Virus record (IMG/VR): IMGVR_UViG_3300028139_000001
Location: 19,516-83,515 of that record
DNA length: 64,000 bases
Source: a virus
Taxonomy: Duplodnaviria; Caudoviricetes
Direction: 5' to 3' (one strand)
Shown: positions 1,097 through 38,323 of the stretch, piece by piece
How the letters are laid out: every line of letters starts with the position of its first letter
Position numbering within the stretch: the first letter of the stretch is position 1
Translations under genes and position numbers: made by a program
The notes under the pieces: model-generated
Database searches by the model: none
Seen by the model: only the letters and a program-made list of their open reading frames with translations
What the model was told of the DNA's origin: nothing

Positions 1097-27006
<25,910 letters not shown>

Positions 27007-27165
27007 AGTCCTTGTCCTACTAGTCGTCGTTGTTTTTTACTTAGTTGTAGTGAGCATTGTACGAACTTAGTTAATTTTATTGTTAACAATAAAATTATTC
27101 GTTCTAGTATATTAGTGCTTTTTGTAGTTGGAGTATTTTTACTATTTACACCTGGAGTTAGTTGT
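27007..27165 (+). other. In-frame 53-codon linker joining Cox1 to Cox2
   Basis: ...LPLQS-SPCPTSRRCFLLSCSEHC...[26 protein letters not shown]; no stop codon and no ATG. Confidence 0.9.
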
Positions 27166-30100
27166 GATGCACCTAGAGCTTGAGGACTTTACTTCCAAGA
27201 TAGTGCTAGTCCACAAATGGAAGCGATAGTAGAATTACATGACAACATTATGTTTTACTTAGTAGCCATTTTATTAGCTGTTGGGTGATTACAAGCAGCT
27301 ATAATTAGAAACTTTGATAGTTCTAAATCTCCTATTAGTCTTAAATATCTTAAACACGGTACACTTATAGAGTTAATCTGGACAATAACTCCAGCATTAA
27401 TATTAGTACTAATAGCTTTCCCTTCTTTTAAATTATTATATTTAATGGACGAAGTTACAGATCCTTCAATGTCTGTATTAGCAGAGGGTAATTTAGATGG
27501 CCCTAAATCGTATACACTATATAAAAACGAAGACATGATAGCACTAGCTGTTAAAAATATAAATATGCTGGCATTTCCTATTATTGGTAAAAGAAATAAT
27601 ACCATTAAAAGTTTATGCCTTAACCAAATGAAAACTTTAACACTTAACCGAATGTTCTATAATAGAGTTAAAGCTCCTTCTAGAATAGGTCCACATGACT
27701 GAGACGTAATTTCAGTTATAGTTGGTTCACTATTAGGCTTAAATAAAAGAAAATATTGTTCTAATCATATAGATTTATTCAAAGATAATAAATTGCAATA
27801 TAGATTACATCCTAATTGAATAACAGGTTTCACTGATGCAGAAGAAACATTTATTATTTCTATACTTAAAAGTAAAGATAGAGCATTAAATTGAAAAGTA
27901 ACCCCTATATTTGCAATAGAACTTCATGGTAAAGATATAAATTTATTACAAATAATTAAGCTCTTTTTTGGAGTAGGTAATATAATAATTAGTAAAAGAA
28001 ACGGACACGCTATATATTCTGTAAAGTCTGCAAAAGATATTTATTCTTCTATTATACCACACTTTAAGAATTACCCTTTATTCACTCAAAAACAAGCAGA
28101 TTTTATTTTGTTTACAAATATTGTAGAACTAATTATTCAAAAACAACATCTATCAGAAGAAGGATTAATAAAAATTATAGCCTTGTGAGCTTCTATTAAT
28201 AAAGGCTTATCTTCTGAGTTATCTAAATCCTTTGCAAATATTAAACCTATTGCAAGACCTGTAGTTTTATTACCGGGTAACTTTAATATGTTTTGATTTA
28301 CTGGGTTTATTGACGGAGATGGTTCTTTTTTTATAAATATTACTAAAGGTAAAACTAAGATAGGTTATGTTATAAGTTTGAATTTTAATGTTACTCAACA
28401 TATTTGTGACAGTGTATTATTTCATTTTATCCGAAAAGGACTAGGTTGCGGTATTGTTTTTGAAATTAGAAAGGATAATAGAGTTAATATTGTTGTAAAT
28501 AAATTTACAGATATAACAAATATAATCATTCCTCAGCGCAGCAGACTCAGTCTTCGAGACGTTGTCTCGAAGACGCCGAGGATTTTTGATAAACATTATT
28601 TACAAAGTACCAAACTTTATGATTTTAAAGATTTTAGATTAGCTGCGGATTTGATAGAAAAAAAGGAACATTTAACTATTAAAGGTTTAGAAAAAATGAG
28701 AGAAATAAAATCTGGTATGAATACAGGAAGACAACATAGTGGATTGTCTATAGAAAATTCTAATATAAAAACTAATTTATTTATTGCTCAAAAAAGAAGT
28801 TTTCATACTAATGTAAAAGCTATTAATAGAATAGGACCTCACAATAGTGATATTATTTCTGTTATAGTTGGATCATTATTAGGTAAAGCTAAAGTCATAA
28901 GATCCATAGGAGGTACTAGGCTTTGTTATAGACAAAGTTCTTTACATAAAGAATATTTATTTTGACAATACAATTTTTATTTAACCAGAAGATATTGTTC
29001 TAACTCACAGCCTAGGTTGTATAAAAGAGAACTAAAAAATAAAGGTGGTGACAATAAAATTTATTTTGGTTATGAATTCTATACTTATTATTTTAGAAGT
29101 TTTAATTGAATCCATAAAATGTTTTACCATAAAGGAAAAAAGGTACTAAAAATGGAATCTAAATATTTTACTCCTCTCTCTTTAGCTGTGTTTTGTATGT
29201 CTAGTGGTAAGTACATAAACAATAAAATAGAATTATCCACTAAATTTAATAAAGAGAGCGATATAGATAAATTAGTTAACATATTAATAAATTGTTTTGG
29301 TATTTATTGTAATAAAAAAAAATGTTTAGGTAGAAAAGAGTTTTATACTATAATAATTCCTAAAAAGTCGGTAAAGCTATTACAAGCTATTGTTTTACCT
29401 CATATTCCATGCAATATTTACAGTAAACTATTTTATGGACATTCCCATAGAGTTAGCTTGGGCAGTGGTTTTAAACGTTTATCTTCTTTTATTAAAAATA
29501 GTAAAGGATACTCTAATAAAAGAGGTCTTCATACTATTAATAAAGCTAACACAAAAATTTCTCTTAATCCTTTTTGAATTACGGGTTTCGCAGATGGTGA
29601 AGCTAAGCTAATTTCACAATATTGATCACTAAAAGTAAATCATTAAAATTAGGTGTAAGAGTACAGCCGTCTTTCCAAATTTGTCTACATTTAAAAGATG
29701 TAGACTTATTAAGAAGATTAAAAAGCTATTGAGGGGTAGGTGATGTTTATTTACAGAATAATTATTGTATATACATGGTTAATTCTTTTAAAGATATTCC
29801 TATTATAATAGCACATTTTGACAAATATCCTCTTTTTTAAGTCAAAAACAAGCGGATTTTAATTTGTTTAAACAAGTATTTTATTTAATACTTGAAAAGC
29901 AACATTTAACTTCTGAAGGTTTGTTAAAAATAGTTAGTATTAAGACATCATCTAATTTAGGTTTACCTGACCGTTTGAAAGAGCAGTTTCCAAGTATAGT
30001 ACCTGTAGTGAGACCTGAAGTTACAGATCAAACAATTAAAGATCCAAACTGAATATCAGGATTTACAGCAGGTGAAGCTTGTTTTAGAATTAAAATTAAT

Positions 30101-33100
30101 AAATCTAAAACTAAAATAGGACATACTGTATGATTAAAATTTACAATAGCTCAACATGTTAGAGATGTTAAGTTACTTAATAGTTTAATTGACTATTTAG
30201 GGTGTGGATCTATAAACAAAGCAAACAACTGTATTGAGTTTGTTGTGACAGGTTTTACCGATATTCGTTTTAAAATTATACCTCAGCGCAGCAGCCTCAG
30301 TCTTCGAGACGTTGTCTCGAAGACGCAGACGCCGAGGTTTTTTGAAAAATACCCTTTTCATAGTGCAAAGAGTTATGATTTTCAGGATTTTTGTATAGCA
30401 GCTAAATTAATAGAGGAAAAAGCTCATTTAACTCAACAAGGTTTTGAAAAATTATTAGCTTTAAAACAAGGTATGAACAGAGGTAGAGAGGAGTAAAATA
30501 TGTTAACGGAGATATAATCAATTACATTACACCTTTATCGTTAGCTATCTGAATTTCAGATAACGGAGGTTGAGCTAAACCTGGTGTAAGAATAGCTACA
30601 AATAATTTTAAATTACATGAAGTAGAATTTCTAGTTAAACTTATCCAAAGTAAATTTCTTTTAGAATGTATTATTCAAACAGATGGGTCAAAATCTTAGA
30701 ATAACAAAACTATTTATATTAATGCTAGTTCAGTTTCCAGATTGAGGGAGCTAGTCTTGCCTTATTTACATACTTCTATGCGTTATAAGCTAGGTCTATA
30801 AAAATAAACTTATTTTTTTTTTATAAAGCTCTTCTAATATATAGGTATACGATAGTCGAGAGGTAAAACATGGTTTTACTTCTAAGTTTCCGACAGGATT
30901 CTTAGAAAAAAGGTTAGTCTTTTTGTTAGTGTATTATTTTATTAAAATTTTATTTCTAATAAGTTAAAAGATTAGTTTTTTTTCTGGCAACACAAGTGTA
31001 AACAGTTAAATATTATTATTTTCAATATCACACCTTAGAGGATATCCTAGGTGGCAGATGATAATACAAGACTGTCTGAGATAATTATTATTATTTTGGC
31101 AACAGACTGGGTCACTTGTGGGTGTCATTATATTGTCACTTGTAAGTGTAAATATATCTGATGCTTATTGTACAGTCGATAGTTCACTATAAAATGCTTT
31201 ATTTAATATTTCTATTTTAGTTATTTGAAATACACTTTGTAGAGAATAAAATAGCCATTAAGATAGCTGAAACCATTTGATAAATAGGATCCTAATAAAC
31301 ACCTTTTTCATATGGTTAGAAGCAGTAAATTTAGCGTTTAATTTAAAGTAGGTTAGTTTTGCACCAATGATATTGAAATTACGAATACCCAGATTTCTTA
31401 AACAATGATGGAGATTTCGTTGAGTTTGATTCTTACTCGGTAGAATTGGATTCGATTCAACTTAAATCTACTTTACCGTCATTTAATCAATTAAATGCGT
31501 CATTAGATTTACCTAGCCCTCCTACCAGAAATATAACGTATTATCCGGACAACGATCTTTTTGAAAGGCTTGAAAAACAAAAGAATCATAATTTATATAA
31601 GCCATTTAATTATGATAGTCCTCGTTGAGATAGTGATAGAATACTAGATCAAACTCTTAAAGATAGAGCTGTGTGTCTTGCAGAAAAATCTGGAAATTTG
31701 GGTAAAGATGGTTACTACATAAAGGAATATACTACTGGTTCAAAAAAAGGTCAGAGGGTCGTTTGTTTGAACAATAATAGTATCATTGCGGCACGTTTGT
31801 TGGAAATAATAAAAAAATAAAATATATAAGCTGTAGGTTAGTTTTGCACCAATGATATTGAAGTTACGAATACCCAGATTTCTTAAACAGTGATGGTGAT
31901 TTCATTGAGTTTGATTCATACTTAGTTCCTGAATCTGATTTAGAAGATGGAGCGTTAAGAATGTTAGAAGTAGATAACCGTGTTATCCTTCCTGAAATTA
32001 CACACACTAGATTTATTCTTACTGCTGCAGATGAACTGAGTACCTTTAGCAAGTAACTCTTAACGTCTATACATTATCAAATTCCGGGGACACCCTAAAG
32101 ACCTTTTAACTAAACGTTTATCTCAAAAGGTTAAACGTGGCTATGTTAATGACCATAGGTATAGTAATATAAAAAGGTATATACGAAAGTTAAATGGGTT
32201 ATCGTGGATCTAAATCACCTAGTTACCTTATTTGGTAACCCTACAATCTTGTAATTCACGCTACAGCTGCAAAGAAAGATTGCTAGGCTACATCATTATA
32301 GTGCAGTAGGTTGTAAAAGAGCAACGAGTAGACGGTAGTGGTCTATAATAGTAAAAAAGGGTTACACTCAACTATTATAGATTAAGGTATACTCTAGTCG
32401 ACCTGATAATAGGTCGTTGGGTTTATAGCTATACCTAAAATCTAAATATTCTAATTATTAATTAATTAACGCAATGGAGTAATGATTATGTTATTTGGCG
32501 GTGGTACATATGGGCAGAGATTTTTAAATAAAATGAAACCAGATTATTAGATCATGGTAAAGTAAGCTCTCGGTTAAGTGTTCTTTTACTTTACTAGTGG
32601 TAAATAAATATTCTGGATACCCTGGACCACGTAATCTAGTTTCTGTGCTTAAATACAGTATTCTTTTTAGAAGAACAAGAACTCTACCCAGTATCTATGG
32701 TTGTAGGTTTTATTCGGAAAATAACCACAATCGTATCACAAGTGAAGTGATTAATAAAGTACTATCTAATCAAGGTGTTTCTATTACACAAAAGGAACTG
32801 AATGTTTTGTTAACTATTAAGGGTGTAACTTTTGACTTACCCTTCAATAGTCAAACATTACCAGCTTTATTTGGTTTGGTAGGTAAACCTAAAAGCAGAA
32901 GACCTAAATCCGGTATATATATTTTTACACACTTAGCTACAGGTAGAAAATATGTGGGGTCAAGTAATAGTATTTCAAGAAGATTAGAACAATATTTTAA
33001 CCCTAATCCTTTATTTTATAAGGAATATGGTTTATTACTTCCTTTGATTAAAAAAGAAGGGGTAAGTAACTGCTTTTAATCTGGAAATATATGTTATGCC

Positions 33101-36100
33101 GGAGGAATTAAGCTCAGATTATAACTTTTTGTTTTTGGAGCAATATCACTTATTAGATAGTAATTTTAACTTAAATACTCAAAGAGTTGTTAATTTTAGA
33201 GTTAATCAAGGAAATACTGTTTATCTATATGATTTTGAGGGTAAGATTTCATATTACACTGCAACTTCTTTAAATGGATTGAAAGCTCATTTAGGTATTC
33301 ATCATTCTACTGTTACAAAATGTATAAAAACCGGATTACTTTATCTAGATTATTTCATAATTACAGATCAACTAAAATCAGATGCAAAAAAAGCTGGTTT
33401 ATCTTTAGAAGAGTTATCTAATTTTATTTCGGACAAAAGATCTTTATTTCGGCTTCGCTTAAAAAAAAAAGAAATGTGCAACAGTTCTTTTTTTTTTTTT
33501 ACCCAGTCTTCGTTTTGAAAGAACGACGACGCCGGGGCTAAAAAAATATTTTTCTTTGAAAAACAGTAAATCAATCTATATTAAACAAGATGTTACAGGA
33601 GTAACACACAATTTTCCTAGCATAACATCATTAGTTAAATACTTTGATAGAATAGATATTAAGGCTAACCGTAATAAGATAGCTAGTTGTTTAAATACCA
33701 ACGAATCTTATTTAGGTTACACTTACTATACTGATACAACCTAAATATTACCAAACTATAAACATTTGGTGATTACTAGCCTATAAATAATAGAGTTCGA
33801 GTTCCAACAAAGTGTTATAATAATAAAATATTTAGATCATGGAAAAGTAAACTATCGGTTATCCATTCATTTGCGATTCCAGCATTAGGAGTAAAGTGTG
33901 ATGCATACCCGGGTAGATTAAACCAATTCTCTGTTCTTATTAACAGATTAGGAACATTTTATGGTCTTATGGCCTAAACTTTAGTGAACCTTGAGTTCTA
34001 AACTATCAAATTGTCGGGAACGCCCTAAAGCTTTCATAACCAAGTAAGAGTAGTAATACATTTTATGGCGCAGGTAATGACTCGCGGTATGGTGAAATCA
34101 TGAGAGATAATTTAATGGGTAATCCGCAGCCAAGTACCTAGTATTTTTTTATTTTTTTTTTTTATTAGGTATGCAGTTCATAGACTAGACGGTAGTTGGT
34201 ATTATTACCATTATAATGCTTAAGATATAGTCAAACCCCTCCTGAAAAGGTGCAGGAAAGTATAATTATTATATTTTTTGTTAATTAAACATACATATTT
34301 GTTAGTTTGTTTAGGGATAAATTTTTACGATCGTTTGCTAAATTTTCATTTTAATGTGTATAATTTTTAAGTTATTATAATTAATTGTATTTTATATTTT
34401 TATTATAACATTTTCAATCTTAAAGTTGTTTATTATAGTATTATAATGCATAAGTTAATTAATAATTATCTTTTATTAGATTCAAGTATAAGTATATTAA
34501 TTTTTAAAAGAACTTATAATACTACTGCTACTAAACAATCTGAAGAATTTAATCCAGAATTCTTAGCGTTAGAACATATTAATAGTGGGAATCCTACAAC
34601 TGCTTCAGTAATTAATAATATATTGTTAAATCAAGCTATCGCTGTTACTGATTCTAAATTAAAAGATTTATTAAAAGTTGAAGGTGTAGGATTTAACTTA
34701 TATTTATCTAGTTCCCCTGTAGCAAAAGAAGATTATAAACTTTTTTCAAAGTTAACAGGTAATTCTAGCTATAAAGGACATTCGGGTGTGTATATGTTTA
34801 TCCACAAGACAACAGGTCAAAAATATGTTGGTTCTTCTAATTTGTTAAGACGTAGAATGGATTATTACTTTAAGGGAGATTTTTTTTCTTTAACGGGTAA
34901 ATTCTTACCATTGCTAACTCAAAAAGGATTAGGTGCTTTTAAATTAATTATCTTTAAGTTAGATAATAATAAATTTAATGTTAAAAATGCGTTAATTTTA
35001 GAACAATATCATTTATTAAGTAAAGAATTTGATCTAAATACTTTAAGAGTAATTAATGCAGGGTCTTCAAAAGGTGAAAGTGTTTATGTTTATGATTTAA
35101 CTTGTAGTACTCTTTATTATCATGCTTGCTCAAGAATTGAGTTAAAAAGAAGATTAAAAGTTCACCCAGAAACATGTAAAAAATTTTTAGATTCAAATCT
35201 TCCTTATCTTAATAGATTTTTATTATTAAGTGGTTTAATATCTACTGCGGTTAAAAGTAATATGTCTGTTCTAGAATTACTTGAAATAATGCAAAAAGAA
35301 AGACAAATTACGTATACATGAGGTACACGAAGAAATATTTCCGTTATCTTAGAAATTAAAGATGGGAATAAATTTGTAGATACTTGAGGCCAAACTCTTA
35401 AATTTGAGTCTATAACTACATGTATTAACTACTTAAGAGATCTAAGGTTAATTATAAAAAGAGAAACTCTTTCTAAATATATAAAAATTGAAAAAGAGTT
35501 CCACCATTTTTTATGTAAATATTCTGATAGTACTAAACCTGATAATTTTGAAGAAGTAGGATTAATTATAGATGAATACAAAAAATTATGAAAACAAGAA
35601 TTAGTTGATATTCCTGGTTAATAAAAAAAAAATAGACCTGTATTAGTAAAAGGTCCTTATTTTGAAAAAGAGTTTGAAACTATTACAGATACAATTAAAT
35701 ATTTTGAGTCTATTGGTATTAAATTAGATAGGAAGTATTTAACTATTAAATTAAAAAATGGTGAACCCTATAAAGGATATTATTTTAAGTAAAAAAATTT
35801 AACATTAAAAATCATAAAAAAAATTTGCAATGTTTAATTTTAAATGTTAAATAAAAACCCCCAAAGAGAAGGTTCTCCGTTTTCTTATAGAGGTTATTGT
35901 CATAATAGAAGCTATAGTACTAATGATTATATAAATAAACTTAGTGAAAAAGTAAAAACGGAGTATGACAATTTACCAGATTACTCTGTAATTAAACGCC
36001 CAGAATCTTTGGTTTATTCTAGAATGGTTTTGTCTTATTCAGATGTAATTGTAACTTTATATGGTTTAGTTCCTAATAAAGAAATGAAAGATTATTTTCA

Positions 36101-37247
36101 TATTCCGGAAAATTGTAATTTACCCGGTATATACTGTTTTATAAGTAAAGATGGTTTATCTTATTATATAGGGTCGTCTTTGAATATGCGAACTAGATAT
36201 AATCGTCATTTGTTTAATTTAAAACAGAATTCGGATTCTAATTAAAGATATTCTGAAGCTAACCCTAAATTTTATAATTATATGAATAAATATGGCTTAG
36301 ATAGTTTATCTTTTTGCTGTTTATTAGTAATAAAAACTATCTTGGCATGTTTACCGGATTTAACCTTTCTGAAGAAGAAAAGGGGGTTTTAACTGCACTA
36401 ATGCAATTAGATCTCTTAATTACTGAACAATTTTTTTTTAGATACTTTCGGTTTTTCATTAAATGTTGCTCCAAAAGCAGGTACGAGAGAAAATAGTATA
36501 TTGTCTGATGAAACCAGAAAAAAAAATGAGTGATGCTCATCTAAACTTAGATATTACGCTTTCGGAAGACCAATGAAAAGCAATTAGAGCTAAAGCTGCT
36601 GAAGCTTGAGCGAAGGAAATACCAGAAAGCGAAAGAAGAATAGCTATAAATTAATTTAACGGTAGAGCTGTAATTGTAAAAGACTCTAATCAAAAAGTAA
36701 TTGGAGAATTTAATTCTATAGTAAAAGTAGTGGAATATTTACATGTTAATCGTAATAAAAATAAGTCTTTATCTAAAGTCAGGGGATTTATTGGAGAGTA
36801 GAATAGGACCTGTACTATTGATAGAAAAAGAGGGCTCAGTTAGTGAGCGTTTCTATAAAATCCAAGTTTTGGATATAAATAGAAATCTATTGGATACCTA
36901 CAGTAGCTTAAGGGCTGCAGCTAAAAGTTTGGGTATTTCCCCTTCTTCCTTTAGTACAACCCACTCCGGTAGGAGTAGGTTATGTAAAGGTAAATACTAC
37001 TTTATAAAATGTGTATAATCTTCTTTATATTCTATTTATATACAAATGTCTTTTCACCCAGAATATTAATTAAAGTGCTTATCTGTCTAATTCATAATTA
37101 TTAATAAATAAAATTGATTAATTACATTAAAATATCGTAAAAATCTTGCAATGTAGCGAAATTTGTGGAATTTTGCACAGTTCTATGCCCATTGTTGTAG
37201 AATCTGTATCTATTGAGAAATTCCTTTTGTGATTACAGGAGCAATAA
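27166..37247 (+). CDS. cox2: Cytochrome c oxidase subunit 2 (mature part); exons 27166-27489, 31847-32032, 33858-33965, 37149-37247
   Basis: [14 protein letters not shown]...EG|HQWYWSYEY...AAD|VIHSFA...YG|[13 protein letters not shown]...WLQEQ*; CuA ligands present. Confidence 0.95.
27490..29646 (+). CDS. In-frame fusion of nested LAGLIDADG endonucleases (~718 aa)
   Basis: RIGPHD...GSLLG stub, [20 protein letters not shown], second RIGPHN...GSLLG domain, then start of a third gene; open to TAA 29644-29646. Confidence 0.82.
28534..28581 (+). mobile_element. GC-rich hairpin element, family D (48 nt, in frame)
   Basis: CAGCGCAGCAGACTCA-GTCTTCGAGAC-GTT-GTCTCGAAGAC-GCCGAGG inserted after IIP. 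Confidence 0.9.
29520..30496 (+). pseudogene. LAGLIDADG endonuclease with frameshifts
   Basis: [11 protein letters not shown] and [12 protein letters not shown]. Confidence 0.8.
30284..30337 (+). mobile_element. GC-rich hairpin element, family D (54 nt, in frame)
   Basis: Near-identical to 28534-28581; inserted at IIP|FF. Confidence 0.9.
30500..30801 (+). pseudogene. Displaced C-terminus of the original cox2 intron 1 LAGLIDADG
   Basis: [16 protein letters not shown]...SMRYKLGL*. Confidence 0.75.
31362..31820 (+). CDS. Duplicate of cox2 exon 2 start (26 codons) fused to an unknown ~126-aa domain
   Basis: GTAGGTTAGTTTTG|CACCAATGATATTGA occurs at 31348 and again at 31833; frame open to TAA 31818-31820. 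Confidence 0.8.
32573..33744 (+). pseudogene. GIY-YIG endonuclease, frameshifted and hit by hairpin elements
   Basis: [20 protein letters not shown]; break near 33070; insert at 33450-33550. Confidence 0.8.
33450..33540 (+). repeat. Composite hairpin element (AT hairpin family I plus family D 3' end)
   Basis: CGGCTTCGCTT-A(n)-GAAATGTGCAACAGTTC-T(n)-ACCCAGTC...GCCGGGGCT; related copies at ~5020-5080 and 59997-60038 (reverse strand). Confidence 0.8.
34446..35621 (+). CDS. GIY-YIG endonuclease (tail frameshifted to ~35790)
   Basis: [19 protein letters not shown]; open to TAA 35619-35621. Confidence 0.85.
35828..37018 (+). pseudogene. Decayed GIY-YIG endonuclease
   Basis: [19 protein letters not shown]; multiple stops and frameshifts. 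Confidence 0.75.
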
Positions 37248-38182: not shown

Positions 38183-38245
38183 TAACTACATTTGTGTAGT
38201 TAAAAAGCTTACTGATATTATTTTTTATAATATCAGTTAACGATG

Positions 38246-38323
38246 ATCTTACACAGTTTTATGCCCATTATTGTAGAATCTGTATCTATCGAGAAATTCC
38301 TTTCTTGGTTACGAGAACAATAG
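38246..38323 (+). pseudogene. Second (displaced) copy of the cox2 3' end
   Basis: [25 protein letters not shown] versus used [25 protein letters not shown]. Confidence 0.92.

Follow-up and report, generated by a model that had tools for sequence, protein, structure and literature searches.

What becomes of a splice acceptor that is present twice, and of the coding sequence caught between its copies? The question is raised by cox2 in a 64,000-nucleotide (nt) stretch of DNA, referred to here as the window (IMG/VR virus record IMGVR_UViG_3300028139_000001, positions 19,516 to 83,515), which is AT-rich (G+C 26–34%) and reads as a fungal-type mitochondrial genome using genetic code 4. The end of cox2 intron 1 and the start of exon 2 occur there in tandem, and the proximal copy opens a frame that leaves Cox2 for another protein sequence. 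On the evidence of sequence comparisons, the two acceptors enclose a cargo domain that is new and conserved, is not a nuclease and is tied to cox2. The reading favoured here is that the cassette is a conserved cox2-associated cargo, and that the duplicated acceptor acts as a minor alternative 3' splice site through which this cargo is expressed; we consider that this has about an even chance of being right.

A repeat search identified a 90-nt direct repeat (family D2) at 31348–31437 and 31833–31922, with an offset of 485 nt and 94% identity between the copies. It consists of the 14 nt of the intron end and the first 76 nt of cox2 exon 2, and CACCAATGATATTGAA, the start of HQWYW, follows both G31361 and G31846. 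The original prediction had described this doubled intron end and exon start from the letters of the sequence, and all of its coordinates proved correct in the repeat search and on direct reading. The first 30 nt of the two copies (14 nt before and 16 nt after the splice point) are identical, and the five differences among the 90 positions comprise three non-synonymous changes (N/S, N/S and V/I) and two synonymous ones. Measured per 15-nt block, the identity between the copies is 87–100% up to 31437 and then falls suddenly to 20–40%. The sharp edge of this 94%-identical tract suggests that gene conversion from the real exon, or selection, may keep the acceptor copy and the first 76 exon bases similar to the real ones. 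G31361 has the attributes of an alternative 3' site of a group I intron, in that a G precedes the site and the bases following it could form a P10 identical to that of the real exon. Because the two acceptors are alike from 14 nt before to 16 nt after the splice point, they should be locally indistinguishable to the ribozyme.

The distal copy begins the full exon, as had been proposed. Cox2 resumes at C31847 (HQWYWSYEY...), directly after G31846, and exon 2 is joined to exon 3 in RNA (32032 to 33858, at a depth of 10204 in the RNA run X13). The productive junction between exons 1 and 2 is fixed by an RNA contig from a related organism, in which the exon 1 end GAGGGT is joined to CAT-CAATGATATTGAAG of exon 2. 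Exon 1 ends on a whole codon, GGT at T27489, and a junction between 27489 and 31362 would be in frame and open to 31817. The frame of the proximal copy, confirmed here as far as the TAA at 31818–31820, comprises 26 Cox2 codons (31362–31439) and 126 further codons (31440–31817), with no in-frame ATG. At the local stop-codon frequency of 0.068–0.070, 126 open codons would arise by chance about once in 10^4 cases, and 4 of 20000 shuffled sequences were open. Only the first 33 residues of the proximal frame are recognized by Pfam as COX2 (profile positions 8–35 of 120); the complete periplasmic CuA domain is not encoded by this frame, and the real exon continues from 31847.

The 126 codons had originally been taken for sequence of no known kind. 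They do lack a named family and any Pfam or PHROG match, but they are not an orphan, given that 12 or more diverged relatives exist. An exhaustive HMMER search covering 1.84 billion representatives yielded 12 such relatives of the tail (E 2.6e-21 to 2.7e-4, 33–50% identity), and profile searches and cluster look-ups added P0018, P0019–P0022 and P0023; the domain is kept in more than a dozen diverged sequence clusters. In alignments, the part common to the family spans about 115 residues, with LPSF at the start and LL..I at the end, and its boundaries are identical in all members. A word-indexed search returned the window's own protein only, from about 60 contigs (up to 206 kb) of this species, in which it is essentially invariant. 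All the relatives come from metagenome or Logan assemblies and are either unnamed or labelled "hypothetical protein". One member alone has a public name (P0016; NCBI/UniRef): it is entered under Streptomyces fungicidicus as a hypothetical protein, and its 19-kb contig has most likely contaminated that assembly from a fungal mitochondrion. A possible further member, as a lead, is orf127 of Stemphylium lycopersici, a hypothetical protein that directly adjoins the stop codon of cox2 (PMC5626475).

The cargo is a real coding unit without a recognizable homing-endonuclease motif, which bears out the earlier claim that it is not a homing endonuclease gene. Neither the cargo nor any of 13 members contains a LAGLIDADG, GIY-YIG, HNH or His-Cys box motif or domain according to Pfam and PHROG, and neither database has a family for the tail or for these members, apart from COX2 in the leader. 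There was no sequence match in PDB for the tail or the family profile, no usable match for the cargo in the ESM Atlas and no relative in viral and prokaryote genome collections. Comparisons with the window itself (tblastn, blastn) revealed no second copy of the tail and no similarity to its GIY-YIG or LAGLIDADG open reading frames (ORFs). At the DNA level, the domain was compared with one relative, L001 (1118 nt), the sole locus obtained from a metagenome scan. The proportions of non-synonymous and synonymous differences were 0.38 (pN) and 0.60 (pS), giving a ratio of non-synonymous to synonymous rates (dN/dS) of about 0.44, with dS near saturation; this ratio indicates purifying selection on the domain.

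The AlphaFold model of the domain, based on a 13-row alignment, has a predicted local distance difference test score (pLDDT) of 83.8 overall and of 88–96 over residues 40–126, with a predicted core of three helices, a small sheet and a C-terminal helix. When the Cox2 fragment and the domain are modelled together, the leader is disordered (pLDDT 43–55) and the domain stays confident. Searches with Foldseek (PDB, BFVD) and VIA-align gave no convincing structural match, with none above Z 3.8 or below E 0.47. There is a weak likeness to winged-helix domains, with VIA-align Z scores of 2.1–2.9 to those of SAMD1, KAT6A, IdeR, CAP, IscR, MCM and Cdt1, and a best Foldseek E value of 0.79. On this likeness, the leading guess is a nucleic-acid-binding role, for example in the spread or maintenance of the cassette or in splicing.

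The architecture of the relatives ties the domain to cox2. Their readable N-terminal extensions resemble Cox2 exon-2 fragments, from clear to degenerate (P0006, P0011–P0014, P0017, P0019–P0023). P0012 has a Cox2 exon-2 stretch followed by LPSI..., and P0020 reads as Cox2 through ...LRVLEVD; LW[FYI]WSYEY... is found in P0013, P0006/P0019 and P0023, and P0014 and P0011 are degenerate. In P0006, P0019 and P0023, RLIL or RLIF lies ahead of the fragment, mirroring the intron end of the window (RLVL), and in P0018/P0022 and P0021 the fragment is preceded by exon 1 itself (...SVLAEG/HQW...). P0018/P0022 are the closest relatives (68% identical over 151 residues) and have Cox2 exon 1, the fragment and the domain in one continuous ORF; the order in P0018 is a nad4-like C-terminus, the whole Cox2 membrane part (79% identical to cox2 exon 1 of the window), the fragment and the domain. 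Their protein is exactly what proximal splicing would give in the window, encoded without an intron. The membrane-anchored Cox2 that was originally envisaged (Cox2 membrane part, 26 codons and the domain) is thus encoded in P0018/P0022, and L001 indicates that the anchor is not obligatory.

In L001, an intact cox2 end with its stop codon is followed by a spacer holding degenerate SYEDFL..VEFID pieces, an ATG-initiated domain, 26 nt and a decayed cox2 copy. The last 14 of the 26 nt share about 10 bases with the intron end of the window, their final base being A. The decayed copy is intronless, starts at the same HQWYW point and reaches the end of the gene with stops and frameshifts. Since the domain has its own ATG in this locus and the cox2 copy downstream is dead, the Cox2 anchor is not a necessary part of the protein. 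The family was seen here only beside cox2 pieces, apparently just upstream of the HQWYW start and just downstream of Cox2 debris. Because the domain and its architecture are conserved across relatives, a recent accidental origin is excluded; as far as such comparisons can tell, the cassette is an old one that carried pieces of cox2 along as it was rearranged or moved. The first suggestion, that an element entered the exon and brought along a new acceptor and exon, is one of several histories that would give the same tandem layout.

Evidence for expression was sought in RNA data. Fourteen phyllosphere metatranscriptomes hold 96–97% of the words of 27000–32100, and three raw-read RNA-seq runs labelled with the species (X19–X21) contained 0, 0 and 1 reads. 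In the unitigs of X13 (Logan contigs), the cassette (31348–31862) has a depth of 1475, and the rest of intron 1 has depths of 400, 457 and 563; this amounts to a 2.6-fold step at 31348 over the rest of the intron. For comparison, the depth is 8419 for an exon 1 unitig, 10204 for the exon 2–exon 3 junction and 1052–1900 for intron 2. The excess is compatible with some proximal splicing, but does not exceed the depth seen in the neighbouring intron.

These observations can be accommodated as follows. The last 485 nt of intron 1 would form a cassette in which a domain of about 115 residues follows, in frame, on a duplicate of the acceptor of this intron and of the exon 2 start. Most transcripts would be spliced to G31846, yielding Cox2, and a minority to G31361, which would place the ATG-less cargo behind Cox2 exon 1 for translation with the signals of the host gene. 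The Cox2 piece would serve as an expression leader outside the cargo fold, as suggested by its disorder in the AlphaFold model and by the ATG of the L001 domain, and gene conversion from the real exon would keep the acceptor copy intact. In a more far-reaching version, which we regard as tentative and rather unlikely, cox2 would be a two-product gene in which a group I ribozyme picks between identical acceptors, the minor product being a Cox2 membrane anchor joined to a domain of an unrecognized, non-nuclease, cox2-bound class, either a selfish-element protein or a host factor.

Several points weigh against expression through the proximal acceptor. The depth of the cassette in X13 is only about 15% of that of the exon 2–exon 3 junction, so the distal acceptor dominates and the proximal product is minor at best. 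This depth is of the same order as that of intron 2, and the step could stem from the stability of intron pieces, from strain differences in intron content or from DNA in the library. A joint at 27489 is listed in X13 for neither acceptor. As far as the 16th exon base, however, the two junction paths have every k=31 word in common, and unitigs of this word length are interrupted at the shared 30-mer, so the missing joints say nothing about acceptor use. The domain is directly preceded by Met in L001, P0009 and P0010 (the ATG was checked in L001 only), and fusion to Cox2 is, therefore, not required everywhere. Finally, no function or fold match from the searches described above backs any role for the cargo.

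The cargo might instead be a genuine, once-mobile cox2-associated gene that is carried along unexpressed with the homing intron, its proximal acceptor being an unused decoy kept by gene conversion. This is the main rival to the favoured reading, although we hold it to be somewhat unlikely. The lack of an ATG in the cargo frame, the clear dominance of the distal site and the absence of the 27489/31362 junction from the X13 listing (from which 27489/31847 was also absent) all fit such a silent passenger, and the intron's own LAGLIDADG genes could move everything between the splice sites. The proximal copy also has N for S in HQWYWSYEY, the S being kept in the real exon and in most of the relatives' copies, which suggests relaxed constraint. 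An unexpressed gene is, however, harder to reconcile with a 126-codon frame that is intact and (nearly) identical in about 60 contigs of this species, with purifying selection on the domain across lineages, with an acceptor copy that is perfect over 30 nt and with cassette RNA in excess of that of the rest of the intron. The least probable alternative, to which we attach next to no weight, is a recent inert tandem duplication with a chance open frame, a non-conserved ORF of this kind having been named by the original prediction as the outcome that would tell against it. The repeat is indeed in tandem and 94% identical, but between the copies lie 395 unique nt encoding a domain that many clusters conserve at 33–68% identity, which refutes this candidate; the ORF is kept in more than a dozen clusters with the dN/dS and the confident fold given above, a frame of this length is rarely open by chance, and the same architecture is found in distant relatives.

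Two further explanations would change the nature of the cassette. Searches of the near and longer length classes yielded no relative with a nuclease domain, all members share the same domain boundaries, and the cargo has neither a Pfam match nor any resemblance to the window's GIY-YIG or LAGLIDADG ORFs; these results make it quite unlikely that the domain is what survives, as a DNA-binding module, of a degenerate homing endonuclease gene that entered cox2 and duplicated its target. Such an origin would nevertheless agree with the weak likeness to winged-helix DNA binders (Z 2.2–2.9) and with a second duplication of this type at the 3' end of the same gene, and host-gene duplications flanking a cargo are typical of free-standing endonuclease genes. 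A very improbable alternative is that 31362–31846 is an intron module in its own right, removed after the large module has been spliced at G31361. Its 5' and 3' boundaries would fall on the same exon bases, and the layout resembles the side-by-side intron modules of Ophiostomatales (PMC7902536). A second self-splicing module is, however, made unlikely by the lack of excess structure in the 485 nt (z = -0.19); the cassette has no Rfam match at E up to 10 and contains no candidates for a guide and core, and about 94% of its length is taken up by the open frame.

To our knowledge, homing endonucleases, maturases and rps3 account for nearly all proteins known from the introns of fungal mitochondria. 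The domain described here is conserved, is confidently folded in the model and occurs in at least three layouts: intronic behind a duplicated acceptor (the window), colinear with the Cox2 membrane part (P0018/P0022), and free-standing behind cox2 and ahead of a dead copy (L001). Were the duplicated acceptor used, this would be natural alternative splicing by a group I ribozyme, giving a second protein from a core respiratory gene. There is also a risk for annotation, as automatic pipelines could choose the wrong acceptor and report a truncated Cox2.

Parts of this arrangement have parallels elsewhere. Mobile or free-standing ORFs that enter a mitochondrial gene and bring a replacement for the displaced gene end have been found in Allomyces atp6, Glomeromycota (mORFs), Ophiostoma rps3 and Saccharomyces COX2 (ORF1). 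In these systems the cargo lies between two copies of the host gene, one functional and one decaying, which is exactly what L001 shows; their cargos are, however, LAGLIDADG or GIY-YIG nucleases and it is the 3' end of the gene that is duplicated, whereas the duplicate in the window is an internal exon start with its splice acceptor and the cargo has no nuclease motif. Plant cytoplasmic male sterility involves chimeric mitochondrial ORFs that are lineage-specific recombination products. Like P0018/P0022, they join the N-terminal part of a respiratory-chain gene to unrelated coding sequence; unlike them, the cargo described here is a conserved folded domain present in many lineages. For mitochondrial group I introns of Podospora anserina, Sellem and Belcour reportedly described in 1994 alternate 3' splice sites by which ORFs in the 3' part of an intron become joined to the exon upstream. 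As in the window, the site there follows a G, and the bases after it imitate the real 3' exon; the mimic in the window differs in being a 90-nt duplicate of the intron end and exon, its cargo is not an endonuclease, and the use of the site is putative. The Podospora work is cited for alternative splicing and plastic intron folds (PMC3073962, PMC7902536). An intron containing a copy of the downstream exon has been described, for which intermediates of splicing were proposed in which the upstream exon is joined to an ORF lying downstream (PMC7902536). The idea of "splicing-mediated core creep" (PMC7902536) is taken here as a precedent beside the Podospora introns. That system differs from the window in that its duplication lies at the 5' end of the intron with a LAGLIDADG ORF, and no conserved non-nuclease cargo was described for it.

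Table 1. Positions in the window of cox2 exons 1 and 2, intron 1 and the elements of the cassette.
Feature	Position	Strand	Remarks
cox2 exon 1	27166..27489	+	Mature Cox2 N-terminal membrane part, DAPRAW...SVLAEG; frame shared with the cox1 tail; last base T27489 is the 5' splice site
cox2 intron 1, ending at the distal acceptor	27490..31846	+	4357 nt; layout of group I type; 5' splice site preceded by U, both acceptors by G
Endonuclease ORF modules	27490..30699	+	Order LAGLIDADG_1 (in frame with exon 1), LAGLIDADG_2, LAGLIDADG_1, LAGLIDADG_2 fragment (Pfam)
Candidate internal guide GCCCT	27500..27504	+	Would pair with the exon 1 end AGGGT (27485-27489) to give P1, with U.G at the splice site; assigned by eye
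Candidate ribozyme core	30991..31177	+	Putative; helices named by eye
Candidate P3	30991-30998 with 31113-31120	+	CACAAGTG with CACTTGTG; assigned by eye
Candidate P7	31105-31109 with 31173-31177	+	GACTG with CAGTC; assigned by eye
Candidate P8 hairpin	31121-31165	+	Assigned by eye
Proximal 14-nt intron end	31348..31361	+	GTAGGTTAGTTTTG; ends in G31361, the candidate alternative terminal G
Proximal copy of the first 76 nt of exon 2	31362..31437	+	93% identical to the real exon start; Pfam COX2 E 5.4e-6
Linker	31438..31472	+	Possibly a strongly diverged continuation of the Cox2 copy, to judge from alignments; same position still plain Cox2 in P0012
Conserved cargo domain	31473..31817	+	About 115 residues; no in-frame ATG; LPSF..L..SL..P.PP...D.DLF.RL.KQ...Y.S..W..D..L...L..R...LAE.SG..GK.GY.IKE...G...G...V.....LL..I
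Stop codon TAA of the proximal frame	31818..31820	+	
Distal 14-nt intron end	31833..31846	+	GTAGGTTAGTTTTG; G31846 is the terminal G of the productive splice
True cox2 exon 2	31847..32032	+	62 codons, HQWYWSYEY...TAAD; joined to exon 3 at 33858

In intron 1, the group I core (RF00028) was not found by Rfam in 27490–31900 at E up to 1 or in 30650–31900 at E up to 10; the neighbouring cox2 and cox1 introns do match RF00028. The region 30960–31361 is structured, with a z score of -2.33 for its minimum-free-energy fold, and if the helix assignments in Table 1 hold, the distance from the end of the candidate core would be about 184 nt to the proximal G and about 669 nt to the distal G. The endonuclease modules form a diverged tandem of about 1756 nt in the repeat search (D1, D3, D4, D6 and D10; spacing 1750–1758). 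Its units (27650–28731 and 29400–30487) are about 72% identical, each with one LAGLIDADG_1 and one LAGLIDADG_2 gene, and both contain a G+C-rich palindrome, GTCTTCGAGACGTTGTCTCGAAGAC, at 28550–28574 and 30300–30324. The RNA depth in X13 peaks at 960 and 2063 in the bins holding these palindromes, versus about 450 nearby.

Other duplications are present in the same gene. Intron 2 of cox2 contains a 41-nt internal copy (80% identical) of its own end and the start of exon 3 (32547–32587 and 33832–33872), which immediately precedes a GIY-YIG ORF and shares its frame, the same design with a classical endonuclease; X13 has no depth step at this copy. The last 30 or so codons of cox2 are also present twice, at 37149–37244 and 38234–38320 (84% and 66% identical to the cox2 end of L001). 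The 341-codon stop-to-stop frame between these copies has no obvious similarity to the cargo domain by inspection. The duplication of the 3' end is a second cargo-plus-duplication event in cox2.

The upstream junction of the gene is also unusual. The cox1 tail and cox2 exon 1 share one open frame (26722–27489), with no stop and no ATG ahead of the Cox2 start (...PLQSS...VSC/DAPRAW...), an arrangement that matches the cox1/2 fusion reported for Pleosporales (PMC5626475). In P0018/P0022, the nad4-like C-terminus enters Cox2 without a stop at the same ...SC/DA... point as cox1 does in the window, and is, thus, another fused upstream partner.

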